Of a DNA stretch of 64,000 bases, positions 14,636 to 47,475 are shown one piece after another. The stretch lies in contig JANRKH010000021.1 in the NCBI GenBank assembly GCA_033763595.1, forward strand, positions 886 to 64,885, in the 5' to 3' direction. The notes under the pieces are model-generated. The model had not been told where the DNA came from and searched no databases. It saw nothing but the letters and a program-made list of their open reading frames with translations. Made by a program: the position numbers and the translations under genes. Positions within the stretch are counted from its first letter, which is position 1; every line of letters starts with the position of its first letter. This stretch comes from Rickettsiaceae bacterium (lineage in GTDB: Bacteria > Pseudomonadota > Alphaproteobacteria > Rickettsiales > Rickettsiaceae).

Positions 14636-15184
14636 TCACAGCAAATCATGACCTTCGCCATCTGAAGTATTTACGATGCCCGTTAAATCTAAATTCGATT
14701 CTGGATCTTTTGTATCTTCGATCGTTTTTGAAACTAAAGACTTTGTGCCAAATAACGCGCTTATGATATCAGAAAAAAATATGCTAAAGATTAGCCCTAT
14801 AGCCGTCCCAACAAACCCTCCTTGCTTTATTCCAACATGCATACCGATTCTGCCACATTCTTCGCTGATTTCACTAGCACTTTTGCCTTGTGATGCGAGC
14901 TCTCGTCCTCTATTGCCACATTTTTCTCTTAAATCATCAGAAATTGCGTGACGACCTCCGGCAATATAACATATAGCGCAGCCTGCACTAGTTAAAGCTA
15001 TTGTCGCTGGAAATGGAATCACTGGAAAAAGAAGAGCTGTTGTTACAGCAGTTACTGCAAATGTTGCCATGGCAGACTCCCCTGAATAAGTTATCGCTTC
15101 GTTCAATCCTGACCCTCTGCCAATCCCATCTCCAACATCTGGGTCAATAGACACTGAGTTATTAGACAATTTACTATGTATCAT
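14636..15184 (-). CDS. hypothetical small membrane protein, paralog of 16134..16664
   Basis: Paired hydrophobic hairpin (AMATFAVTAVTTALLFPVIPFPATIALTSAGCAICYIAGG), second Gly-rich TM, acidic C-terminal tail. Start set at the internal ATG (MIHSKLSNN...) by comparison with the paralog. The longer ORF-track start would overlap the upstream gene. Confidence 0.75.
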   Translation of the reverse strand: MIHSKLSNNSVSIDPDVGDGIGRGSGLNEAITYSGESAMATFAVTAVTTALLFPVIPFPATIALTSAGCAICYIAGGRHAISDDLREKCGNRGRELASQGKSASEISEECGRIGMHVGIKQGGFVGTAIGLIFSIFFSDIISALFGTKSLVSKTIEDTKDPESNLDLTGIVNTSDGEGHDLL

Positions 15185-15228
15185 AATTTCCGTAATTTTT
15201 TTATTAATAGAAAAATAAATATTGTTTA

Positions 15229-15918
15229 TTATCCAACATCTTTCCATGTCTCGCCGAAAAATTCACCCACTATTTCAACGTCTTTCCATGTCTCTGAGGC
15301 TTCGCACCATATGTCTGATTCTGACATATCAGAATTTTTGTGAGACTGCTTTTTAAAAATTGTAGCTGGAGAAGGTTTCTTGCTGGGTGTATTTTTTTGC
15401 GCCGGATTATCCTGCTCTGTTGCTGCGTAAGCAACTGCAGTTACTACTCCTCCTCCGCCTAATATATAAGAAGCTCCCTCAGAGCTAACGACAAACTCAT
15501 AGACCGGTTTTGTATATTTTGCCTTGTTAAATGCAATATCAGCAGCTACAATGCCTGTTACAGCTCCTGAGGCAACTCCTACGTTTACTCCGTCTCTAAA
15601 AGCATAGCTCCTTACTTCTTCAATAATTTTTTCGGGGTCATTTTGATTATTCATATGAGCAACTTCTGCATGTTCATCGCGCATTAATTGTGCGAATCCT
15701 GCTCCGGTAAGACTACCAACTACATATGCCACGCCATAAGCTGCAGATGCAGCTGCAACAATAGGCATCAGAGGCGCGCCAACAAAAATACCTACCCCTA
15801 CTGTAATTCCCGCTCCAGTTACCGCTGAGGTATTACTAGACCACGAAATAGTATCGTTACTGTAAGTTCCCTTTGCTTTAGAGAGCAGTTCCTCTTTTGT
15901 GAGTTGTTTGTTTTTCAT
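15229..15918 (-). CDS. hypothetical glycine/alanine-rich membrane protein
   Basis: 229-aa ORF with paired hydrophobic hairpins (GAGITVGVGIFVGAPLMPIVAAASAAYGVAYVVGSL) and a C-terminal internal repeat ETWKDV...ETWKDVG. I recognise no family. Confidence 0.7.
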   Translation of the reverse strand: MKNKQLTKEELLSKAKGTYSNDTISWSSNTSAVTGAGITVGVGIFVGAPLMPIVAAASAAYGVAYVVGSLTGAGFAQLMRDEHAEVAHMNNQNDPEKIIEEVRSYAFRDGVNVGVASGAVTGIVAADIAFNKAKYTKPVYEFVVSSEGASYILGGGGVVTAVAYAATEQDNPAQKNTPSKKPSPATIFKKQSHKNSDMSESDIWCEASETWKDVEIVGEFFGETWKDVG

Positions 15919-15967
15919 AATATTTTACTCCTTTTATTAAATTAATAATTTCATAAGGAGGTTCCAC

Positions 15968-16085
15968 AGTAAAACCTTCTTAGGCCCTCTGTTTATATTT
16001 TACATCACTGGTTTTTAAAATTTTACATACAACAAAACAAGATGCAACAAAAAAATTTAACTATAGTTTGTTTATTTTTATTTTT
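15968..16085 (-). repeat. duplicated upstream (promoter/5' leader) module, copy 1
   Basis: Near-identical by eye to 16707..16822 over about 115 nt. Lies 50-165 nt upstream of the 229-aa gene. Confidence 0.8.
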
Positions 16086-16133
16086 AGTTAACTATTTTTT
16101 TAGAGAATACACTGGTTCTTGTAAATATATCAG

Positions 16134-16664
16134 TCACAAATCATGATCTTCATAATCTGAAGTATTTACGATGCCCGTTAAATCTAAATTCGATTCTGGA
16201 TCTTTTGTATCTTCGATCGTTTTTGAAACTAAAGACTTTGTGCCAAATAACGCGCTTATGATATCAGAAAAAATAGCACTAAAAAATAAGCCTATTCCAA
16301 CCCCGATAAGTGCACCTTTCTTTACTCCTTCGTATCTGCCTATTTTGCTACATTCTTCTCTAATTTCATTTGCGCTTTTGCCTTGTTCTGAGAGCTCTCG
16401 TCCTCTATTGCCACATTTTTCTCTTAAATCATCAGAAATTGCGTGACGACTCCCTGCTAGATAGCTTAAACCACAGCCTGCACTAGTTAAAGCTATTGTC
16501 GCTGGGAATGGAATCACTGGAAAAAGAAGAGATGTGGTTATAGCAGTTACCGCAAATGTTGCCATGGCAGACTCCCCTGAATAAGTTATCGCTTCGCTTA
16601 ATCCTGACCCTCTGCCTATCCGGTCTCCATCATCAGGAGTAACAGTATAGTTACCATTTGTCAT
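16134..16664 (-). CDS. hypothetical small membrane protein, paralog of 14636..15184
   Basis: 176 aa with the same architecture as the paralog. The last 119 nt of shared sequence are perfectly identical (16155..16273 vs 14660..14778). Confidence 0.78.
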   Translation of the reverse strand: MTNGNYTVTPDDGDRIGRGSGLSEAITYSGESAMATFAVTAITTSLLFPVIPFPATIALTSAGCGLSYLAGSRHAISDDLREKCGNRGRELSEQGKSANEIREECSKIGRYEGVKKGALIGVGIGLFFSAIFSDIISALFGTKSLVSKTIEDTKDPESNLDLTGIVNTSDYEDHDL

Positions 16665-45487: not shown

Positions 45488-45493
45488 AGATAT

Positions 45494-45570
45494 GGGGGTG
45501 TAGCTCAGTTGGTTAGAGCGCCTGCCTGTCACGCAGGAGGTCGCGGGTTCGAGTCCCGTCACTCCCGCCA
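45494..45570 (+). tRNA. tRNA-Asp (anticodon GTC), CCA encoded
   Basis: GGGGGTGTAGCTCAGTTGGTTAGAGCGCCTGCCTGTCACGCAGGAGGTCGCGGGTTCGAGTCCCGTCACTCCCGCCA. Anticodon loop CTGTCAC. Confidence 0.93.
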
Positions 45571-45720
45571 CCATACTTTTCGCAATGGTATTCAACACTT
45601 TGGACTCGGTATAAGTCTTGTGGATTATTGTATATTATCTATGTATTAGGATCTAGACTGTGCGAATCCATACATTTCAGCTAATATCTTTACTTGGAGA
45701 TTCTTCTATTAGTGCGTATT

Positions 45721-45882
45721 AGATCTCTGCTAAAACTTGCTCCTGGCGAGAAGGCTCTAGGACCACGCAGGAAGCGCTAGCACTGCACAGCGTAACATAT
45801 GGAGGGAAAAGGTACATGAGGATTCCTTATAATTGCGCTGCAGAATCAATTTCATTTATTAGTAGAGTTTTTAGGAGAGGTC
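45721..45882 (+). repeat. GC-rich palindromic repeat, family D (diverged)
   Basis: AGATCTCTGCTAAAACTTGCTCCTGGCG...GTACATGAGGATTCC...AGTAGAGTTTTTAGGAGAGGTC. Confidence 0.75.
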
Positions 45883-46062
45883 AAATATGCCAAATGACTT
45901 GCTCCTTTATTTTATCTTTAAGACTTGGTATACGAACCAACACAAATGTATGATCCATATGCACTATCAGAAATCACATGTATAATATCGTAACAAAAAG
46001 GTCTTGCGCAAAAAAAGCTTTATAGATACATTGATTCACTCGAATCATATAATAAGGCCATC

Positions 46063-47475
46063 ATGCTAGACGATAAATATATGCTTGCTTATTTAGCTAA
46101 GGCAGAAGTTCTTCAAAATATGCAAGAAGAACATAACGAAGCATCAGAAATAGAAATACTTGATTGTCTAAACAAAGCATACGAAATCTCTCGGGATAAG
46201 AGCTTGCTTGATTCTATTAAGCTCTCTAAAATAAACCGTGATTATATGCAAAGAATGTTCGAGGAGAGAGAAAAATTACTTGAAAAGTTGCAATTCTCAT
46301 CGCAAGAAGCAAACGATCCTCAAAATCCTCAAGAATTGCTAGACATAGGAGACGAACTTTTTATTCTTGGTAAAACTGAATCAGCTTTAGAAGCATATGA
46401 TAAAGCCATTCTCTTAGACAAAAATTATTCAAGAGCTTACGCAAAAAAAGCAAATCTACTGCGCTTTAAGGGCATGATCACTGAAGCAATTGAAGTAATA
46501 AATAAGGCCATAAATCTAGATCCAAATGACCCTGCAGGATATTATGTTAAAGCAAGAATACTAGCTGCTCTAGGAAATACAGAAGAAGCAACAAGTATAT
46601 ATAATAAAGCTCTCAGTCTAGATCATAATGATGATGCATATATATATTTCTCTAAAGGAGCTGCTCTTGCCTCTCTTTCTAAATACGATGAAGCAATCGC
46701 AGCCTATGATGCCTCTATAAGATTAAACCCGGAAGATAAACTGATTTGCGCAACTACCTACATTAACAAAGGTATCGCCCTTAGATCCCTTTCTAGATAC
46801 GATGAAGCAATCACAGCCTATGATGAAGCTATCAAGCTAAAACCGGATTTTTCGGTAGCTTACTATAGCAAAGGTAATGTACTTATTGATCTTGCTAGAT
46901 ACTATGAAGCAGCTACAGCCTATGATGAAGCAATACAGCTAAAGCCAGAAGATGATCGGGTTTGTGCAAGTATCTATTATAATAAAGCTAAAGCGCTAAA
47001 CTCTCTTGGTAGATATATTGAAGCTATAGAAGCTTGCGATTTAGCAATCAAGATAAAGCCTAATTATGCTGCTGCATATCTTAATAAAGGCAATGCTCTT
47101 TATGCTCTTTCTAGATATGAAGAGGCAGTTGAATCCTATGGAGCTGCTATTATTCTAAAACCTGATGATAAAGAGTTTTGTGCAAGCGCATACAATAACA
47201 AAGCTAGCGCGCTTAATCAACTTTCAAGATACGAGGAAGCCCTAAGTGCCTTTAATGAGGCTATAAAATTAGATGATAAATTAGTACTTGCATATTTAAA
47301 CAAGGCTCAAACTTTGCAAGATATTCTACTAGTAGAATCAGGAGGACATATTGAAGACATAGGAGCAAATATAGATCAAAAACCCGAAGAAGTAATGCAA
47401 GATAATACAGAATCAGAGATTATAGACCATTCAATCTCTTGTATTGGAGACGTGCAAAGAGAGCTGCGAGATTGA
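46063..47475 (+). CDS. tetratricopeptide (TPR) repeat protein, possibly 5'-truncated
   Basis: At least nine tandem 34-aa TPR units (e.g. AYAKKANLLRFKGMITEAIEVINKAINLDPNDP). TPR-like coding signal continues upstream of the first ATG through an in-frame TAA at 45991. Confidence 0.85.
   Translation: MLDDKYMLAYLAKAEVLQNMQEEHNEASEIEILDCLNKAYEISRDKSLLDSIKLSKINRDYMQRMFEEREKLLEKLQFSSQEANDPQNPQELLDIGDELFILGKTESALEAYDKAILLDKNYSRAYAKKANLLRFKGMITEAIEVINKAINLDPNDPAGYYVKARILAALGNTEEATSIYNKALSLDHNDDAYIYFSKGAALASLSKYDEAIAAYDASIRLNPEDKLICATTYINKGIALRSLSRYDEAITAYDEAIKLKPDFSVAYYSKGNVLIDLARYYEAATAYDEAIQLKPEDDRVCASIYYNKAKALNSLGRYIEAIEACDLAIKIKPNYAAAYLNKGNALYALSRYEEAVESYGAAIILKPDDKEFCASAYNNKASALNQLSRYEEALSAFNEAIKLDDKLVLAYLNKAQTLQDILLVESGGHIEDIGANIDQKPEEVMQDNTESEIIDHSISCIGDVQRELRD

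Follow-up and report, generated by a model that had tools for sequence, protein, structure and literature searches.

Acidic C-terminal tails on lineage-specific proteins encoded in an uncultured Rickettsiaceae genome

We identified acidic C-terminal tails on most of the lineage-specific proteins encoded by a 64,000-nucleotide stretch of DNA (the window; G+C content ~35%) from a metagenome-assembled genome (MAG) of an uncultured Rickettsiaceae bacterium, of which this one contig was analysed. The window also encodes a VirB/VirD4 type IV secretion system (T4SS). An earlier note on this DNA proposed that seven orphan or repeat proteins share a C-terminal motif, in which a hydrophobic pair is followed by Gly or Asn and then by an acidic stretch, starting 9-14 residues from the end, and that this motif might act as a secretion signal. 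The seven endings read exactly as quoted there and belong to the genes named. As a seven-protein motif, however, the pattern is over-fitted, and the more robust shared feature is the acidity of the tails, not the motif. A tetrapeptide, [IL]VGE, present in three of the proteins is of borderline significance and is suggestive, not established. The link to the T4SS is unsupported.

These tails matter since the signals of the Rickettsiales VirB/VirD4-type (rvh) T4SS are poorly defined and the effectors of uncultured members are not findable by homology. With a recognisable C-terminal tag, catalogues of effectors could be compiled from MAGs, and such a tag would show that the P-type T4SS or the type I secretion system (T1SS) of this lineage reads acidic tails. 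The present yield is a short list of candidate secreted or membrane proteins.

Acidic tails and a tetrapeptide in lineage-specific proteins

We defined a set of nine orphan open reading frames (ORFans) of at least 150 aa, with paralogs collapsed, and called a tail acidic when the net charge of its last 25 residues is -4 or lower. Acidic tails are found on six of the nine ORFans, compared with two of 31 core proteins (Fisher p=5e-4). The only two acidic-tailed core proteins are VirB8 and VirD4, both of which are parts of the T4SS. Acidic tails are also rarer in the virD4 neighbourhoods of 80 relatives, where 11 of 259 lineage-specific open reading frames (ORFs) of at least 150 aa carry one (p=2e-6 versus the ORFans). 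Over the last 60 residues, the mean net charge is -7.8 in motif carriers and +0.5 in core proteins (p=3e-4). Acidity is concentrated at the very end of most of these proteins: five of the six acidic tails rank within the most acidic 15% of the 25-residue segments of their own protein, and the tail of the 155-aa protein ranks within the top 26%.

Three ORFans carry the tetrapeptide. The 229-aa protein (15229..15918, - strand) contains a hairpin-like hydrophobic stretch of ~40 residues and a second hydrophobic segment, and it ends ...ETWKDVEIVGEFFGETWKDVG, with IVGE at 15262-15273, 14 residues from the end. Its tail (15232-15306, - strand) also contains an internal duplication, with ETWKDV occurring twice and flanking IVGE. 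The 155-aa protein (33883..34350, - strand) is hydrophobic over residues ~17-97 and has the acidic tail ...EDEFQTIELNDTQGLVGESESLHLNPAL, with LVGE at 33916-33927, likewise 14 residues from the end. The third, a soluble 340-aa protein (40952..41974, + strand), ends ...CFEVDGYSIVGEEVEGEFYY, with IVGE at 41936-41947, 12 residues from the end. This tail is the most acidic of the set (net -8 over the last 25 residues); an AlphaFold prediction of the protein made without an alignment was uninformative (predicted local distance difference test score, pLDDT, of 30).

Two further members of the seven are paralogs. The 176-aa protein (16134..16664, - strand) has two hydrophobic stretches and ends ...LDLTGIVNTSDYEDHDL, which matches only a loose form of the pattern. 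Its paralog, 78% identical, ends ...LDLTGIVNTSDGEGHDLL and is encoded at 14636..15247 (- strand), where the mechanically called ORF is 203 aa long and the GenBank annotation, with its start at 15184, is 182 aa long. A 119-nt block of identical DNA spans both tails, and the pair therefore counts as one observation. The two genes (14636-15184 and 16134-16664) are mosaic: long stretches in which their DNA is 100% identical, among them the last ~40 codons, are interspersed with strongly diverged ones, for example the second hydrophobic segment. Such a pattern suggests gene conversion or localised diversification. The gene for the 229-aa protein sits between the two paralogs, and its product shows weak similarity to them in the same register (E=0.09).

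As the earlier note stated, the seven proteins belong to no recognisable family or have only eukaryote-like repeats: neither Pfam nor NCBIfam has a family that matches the 229-, 340-, 155-, 203- or 176-aa protein, and the remaining two are repeat proteins. One is a soluble 433-aa ankyrin protein (32196..33497, + strand) with repeats only at residues ~26-117 and 300 other residues that are unique. Its tail ...APTFTGVNIDEHFG (TGVNIDE) is only mildly acidic (-3) and does not match the regular expression that the note itself had given. The other is a soluble 470-aa tetratricopeptide repeat (TPR) protein (46063..47475, + strand) that ends ...SISCIGDVQRELRD and matches only the loose expression. Beyond the seven, we identified a soluble 318-aa ORFan (47494..48450, - strand), not listed in the earlier note, that ends in the acidic tail ...YELNDYIFENPRSDYQNILQ (net -4) and lacks ΦVGE (Φ, a hydrophobic residue), and a 370-aa ORFan (23444..24556, - strand) that adjoins the virB genes and has one hairpin-like hydrophobic stretch. 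The 229-, 203/176- and 155-aa carriers and the 370-aa ORFan thus contain hydrophobic stretches of 30-40 residues that are mostly interrupted by Pro or Gly and resemble membrane hairpins. No obvious Sec signal is present in any of these proteins, as judged by inspection only.

Across 49 proteins (17,371 residues) we counted five occurrences of the pattern [ILV][IV]GE, and three belong to ORFans: at -14 in the 229-aa protein, at -14 in the 155-aa protein and at -12 in the 340-aa protein. At positions -16 to -9, three occurrences of this strict motif are observed versus 0.11 expected, and six matches to the broad regular expression versus 0.61 expected. Among 846 six-frame stop-to-stop segments, the strict motif occurs at that position in only those three proteins. 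Because the pattern had been fitted by eye, we searched all degenerate four-residue patterns and compared the best score with the best scores of shuffled tails and of random internal segments. The family-wise p is 0.12-0.17 for all 48 proteins and 0.05-0.07 when a 3-residue position band is imposed. In the all-protein search, the score of the motif is almost equalled by that of YQ[DEN][IV], a pattern unrelated to it. For the ORFans only, the family-wise p is ~0.003 with tails of 15-20 residues, 0.005-0.08 with tails of 30 residues and 0.000-0.08 across tail lengths. We also applied a BLOSUM62 multi-sequence test, for which two autotransporter-like paralogs served as a positive control and were detected. 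This test found no ORFan-tail similarity beyond the tetrapeptide above chance (p=0.1-0.6).

These results narrow what the earlier note had claimed. Three of the seven tails do carry [IL]VGE, but the paralogs amount to one case, the ankyrin protein misses the regular expression and four of the seven fit only a loosened or hand-made pattern. Because the remaining members are weak, dependent or non-matching and no similarity extends further, we regard the tetrapeptide in three proteins as the core of the observation. The statement that its occurrence at a like distance from the end in three unrelated proteins is very unlikely by chance agrees with the count (3 versus 0.11) but not with the all-protein family-wise p of 0.05-0.17. 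Housekeeping proteins were said to lack the motif. No core protein matches the regular expression at -16 to -9, but UDP-glucose dehydrogenase (51388-52674) ends ...FLVGDKE and has the same kind of tetrapeptide at -6. The DNA encoding the tails differs between genes, as claimed, except in the paralogs with their identical 119 nt.

Relatives and genomic surroundings

Among 185,579 species genomes, the VirD4 proteins nearest to that of the window share only 72-76% identity with it and come from other uncultured Rickettsiaceae, such as Megaera-like lineages; the best SecA match in metagenomes reaches 63% identity. We therefore regard the lineage as essentially unsampled. For sequence comparison we used 160 loci, comprising 80 virD4 loci from GTDB genomes and 80 metagenome loci. 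VirD4 of the 80 relatives is 56-76% identical to that of the window, and gene order downstream of virD4 is not conserved among them.

The large-database searches, which covered the 176-, 229- and 340-aa proteins, found no homolog of these three except on this contig. By tblastn, the 160 loci yielded no ortholog for any of the nine ORFans, and the ankyrin protein has none in metagenomes. Word-indexed searches of 5.8e9 clusters recovered only itself and its paralog for the 176-aa protein and only itself for the 229-aa protein. With the 340-aa protein as query, HMMER was run exhaustively against 1.84 billion representatives and likewise returned only the protein itself. Among the relatives' 1,166 ORFs around virD4, the strict motif at -16 to -9 is absent (0 versus 2.2 expected) and the broad expression matches twice (versus 9 expected). 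The sole relative tail of similar flavour belongs to a lineage-specific 390-aa ORF of Rickettsiaceae SGMAG-38 (locus L079, 13386-14558, + strand), located two genes downstream of virD4. Its very acidic tail, ...EEIESEEVESSLLLGNVELIDN, contains a hydrophobic pair followed by G-N.

The T4SS of the window is P-type (rvh-like) by Pfam, with a virB8-virB9-virB10-virB11-virD4 cluster at 25748..31352 (+ strand) and a VirB2/TrbC pilin at 5659-6009. The earlier note was thus correct that a VirB/VirD4 system lies in the same window as the tails. This proximity is no evidence for a T4SS route. DotL, DotM and IcmSW are absent from the window proteins scanned, and no T1SS genes (ABC transporter, membrane fusion protein, TolC) are found within the window. 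We also identified flagellar fliD (870 aa) and fliS (163 aa) genes at 52739-55844. Their presence in a Rickettsiaceae MAG implies a flagellar export apparatus or its remnant, which would be another possible secretion route. A tandem pair of paralogs, 28% identical, lies between the 155-aa ORFan and secA (34927-37389); both have autotransporter beta-domains and neither has a recognisable passenger domain.

Eleven copies of an intergenic palindromic element of ~110-120 bp, similar to miniature inverted-repeat transposable elements (MITEs) or Rickettsia palindromic elements (RPEs), are dispersed in the window (at 1935, 14562, 20318, 21993, 23068, 25105, 25457, 31545, 34538, 34648 and 40761, each about ±60 bp). 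Copies fall into two types with a common core, TAGGTGAGCGACGAG, which has 12 matches versus 0.25 expected. Their terminal inverted repeats are TTATACCAAATCCC...GGGATTTGGTATAA in type one and CTATAGTCTTTTAGGTTG...CAACATAAAAGACTATAG in type two. The element is absent from the relatives' 160 loci, and seven of the 11 good copies adjoin ORFan genes. We considered a repeat-element origin of the tails and rejected it: all 11 copies lie clear of the tails, whose DNA does not match the element. Other intergenic features, located between ORFans and housekeeping genes, are a small signal recognition particle (SRP) RNA (23225-23319, - strand) and four tRNA genes for Leu, Phe, Arg and Asp (12620, 22152, 37659 and 45494).

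Explanations for the acidic tails

Any role of these proteins in secretion is something we infer from the features described above, namely the tail sequences, their charge bias, the enrichment of the tetrapeptide and the lack of homologs of the proteins searched. We tentatively propose, with a little less than even confidence, that the ORFans are host-directed or envelope proteins whose tail, acidic and probably unstructured, serves at the C-terminus as a compositional determinant of Sec-independent export or sorting. The acidic last 25-30 residues, which are found on most of the lineage-specific ORFans, some of them soluble and some with hairpin-like hydrophobic segments, would in this proposal direct export or sorting by their composition and not by a sequence-specific motif. 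The Glu-rich E-block of Dot/Icm substrates and the acidic C-termini of Rickettsiales T1SS substrates would be analogues in charge. The route could be a T1SS, the rvh T4SS or neither. The class of the carriers (ankyrin proteins, TPR proteins and ORFans) counts in favour of the proposal, as it is the usual source of Rickettsiales effectors.

Several observations weigh against a role in export or sorting. The ORFans have an acidic composition over their whole length (net -2.5 to -9.7 per 100 residues), and tail acidity is therefore partly a whole-protein property. In four membrane proteins, the acidic tails could simply face the periplasm according to the positive-inside rule. The 370-aa ORFan beside virB8 is a counter-example, with a basic tail (...KNSFRGKG) that lacks the motif. 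LDAVTSIF residues, the usual compositional descriptor of T1SS substrates, make up 45-72% of the last 60 residues in carriers (mean 54%; published range 37-63%), compared with 55% in core proteins. Orthologs that would show conservation were found neither in the 160 loci nor in the large-database searches, and the paralog tails lack synonymous divergence and are therefore uninformative on selection. Upstream of the seven ORFan transcription units, we found no shared promoter or regulator box above shuffles. The lack of significance of the tetrapeptide with all proteins or with 30-residue tails (p=0.05-0.17) and the BLOSUM62 result belong on the same side, as does, with respect to a T4SS route, the scattering of the genes for the seven listed tails over 33 kb amid housekeeping genes, which makes their proximity to the T4SS loose.

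Many of these points are what would be expected if the tails carried no signal, as products of chance and composition in fast-evolving acidic ORFans, some of which are perhaps inner-membrane proteins with periplasmic acidic tails, and if the three ΦVGE occurrences were coincidental. We consider this explanation a serious one, with a likelihood of roughly one in three. An equally extreme best pattern is found in 12-17% of the shuffled and internal-segment controls for all proteins, and YQ[DEN][IV] does nearly as well. Extended tail similarity and a shared promoter motif are lacking, and the motif is absent in relatives. Chance and composition account less readily for tails that are far more commonly acidic than those of core proteins or of the relatives' lineage-specific ORFs, or for the concentration of acidity at the very end of most carriers. 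They also leave aside the confinement of the tetrapeptide to ORFans and to a 3-residue position band.

Alternatively, the tails would not be export signals but would function once delivered, binding host proteins through short linear motifs or acidic patches, for example LC3-interacting-type [WFY]xx[ILV] cores following acidic residues. Of the six independent tails, four contain, on direct reading, an aromatic-x-x-aliphatic core in an acidic context. The 155-aa protein has EDEFQTI, the 229-aa protein has two copies of ETWKDV, the 340-aa protein has DGYSIV and the ankyrin protein has PTFTGV. EDEFQTI (within 33886-33960, - strand) presumably fits the extended LC3-interacting-region (LIR) pattern, and we take the cores in the 229-aa, 340-aa and ankyrin tails to be weaker. 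By our own estimate, however, [WFY]xx[ILV] arises by chance in roughly a third of tails of 20-30 residues. The spacing to ΦVGE differs from protein to protein, and only one tail fits the stricter pattern. We judged the LIR-type motif by inspection too permissive to count, and consider a host-binding role of this kind hardly probable.

The reading of the earlier note, in which a hydrophobic pair, Gly or Asn and an acidic stretch form a translocation signal recognised by VirD4 of the neighbouring VirB/D4 system, appears unlikely to us. It draws on the [ILV]VGE tetrapeptide at a near-equal distance from the end of three unrelated ORFans (ORFan-only family-wise p≈0.003) and on the complete virB8-virD4 cluster in the window. 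A precedent from Rickettsia is the binding of RvhD4 by the tails at the C-termini of RalF and RARP-2 (PMC4546372, PMC11077975). However, four of the seven members match only when the pattern is loosened or made by hand, the all-protein family-wise p is 0.05-0.17 and the motif is absent from the 1,166 ORFs around virD4 in 80 relatives. All seven tails also fall short of the criteria for alpha-proteobacterial T4SS effectors, and none contains EExxE (PMC3814349). In Rickettsia typhi RalF, deletion of a C-terminal segment lowers RvhD4 binding, and it is the positively charged residues that are highlighted in this segment (PMC4546372). Recognition of the Legionella E-block is attributed to DotM and IcmSW of the T4B system (PMC11602083), neither of which is seen in the window.

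A more specific form of this idea, in which the rvh-type VirD4 reads the acidic tail around ΦVGE as an export signal that is lineage-specific and definable by sequence, is in our estimation very improbable. If this were true, a type IVA system would for the first time be known to use an acidic signal, and a motif would for the first time let the effectors of an uncultured Rickettsiaceae be listed by sequence alone, including membrane-hairpin effectors that would be extracted from the inner membrane.

Comparison with known secretion signals

The machinery of the window is of the same kind as that of alpha-proteobacterial VirB/D4 systems and of the Rickettsiales rvh system with its RalF, RARP-2 and AnkA-type effectors. 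These systems have the virB8-11/virD4 components, and in them the C-terminal tail binds the coupling protein. The known signals are basic, unlike the tails described here. Every known alpha-proteobacterial T4SS effector has three or more H/R/K among its last 25 residues, and for most of them the C-terminal charge is +2 or higher (PMC3814349). In the seven tails, H/R/K number 1-3 and the charge over the last 25 residues is -3 to -8, which places all of them outside the S4TE criteria of three or more H/R/K together with a net charge of +2 or higher over that length.

Rickettsiales T1SS substrates, including Orientia Anks, Ehrlichia TRPs and Ank200 as well as RARP-1 of R. typhi, share features with the carriers. 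They are ORFans or proteins with ankyrin or other repeats, have an acidic isoelectric point (pI) or C-terminus and lack a Sec signal. Acidic C-termini and acidic pI are published descriptors of these substrates, among them 19 of 20 Orientia Anks in a surrogate assay, and their signal is C-terminal, uncleaved and without a consensus (PMC4315096). The carriers similarly combine acidity of the protein or its C-terminus with the lack of a Sec signal (judged by inspection). They differ in that the composition described for such substrates, rich in LDAVTSIF and poor in KHPMWC over the last 60 residues, does not distinguish carriers from core proteins in this window, and in that four carriers are strongly hydrophobic membrane proteins, which are atypical T1SS cargo.

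The hydrophobic stretches of ~30-40 residues in the 229-, 203/176-, 155- and 370-aa proteins recall chlamydial Inc-type proteins. These have a bilobed hydrophobic domain and an N-terminal type III secretion signal, and they share no sequence similarity with the proteins of the window.

The Dot/Icm E-block resembles the tails described here in that it lies in the last 20-30 residues, is rich in acidic and small residues and lacks overall sequence homology, and in that many of the substrates are ORFans or ankyrin proteins. In contrast, the window has a P-type VirB/D4 (rvh-like) system, DotM and IcmSW are not seen in it, and EExxE, which defines the E-block when present in the last 30 residues (PMC3814349), is missing from all seven tails; that of the 340-aa protein (GEEVEGE) is the only Glu-rich one. 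Legionella transmembrane effectors have one or two transmembrane segments and need a cytoplasm-facing C-terminal signal, and 65% of them have a C-terminal E-block (PMC11602083). These effectors are the nearest counterpart in function to the membrane ORFans. The tails resemble T1SS substrates or Legionella E-block signals in charge only.

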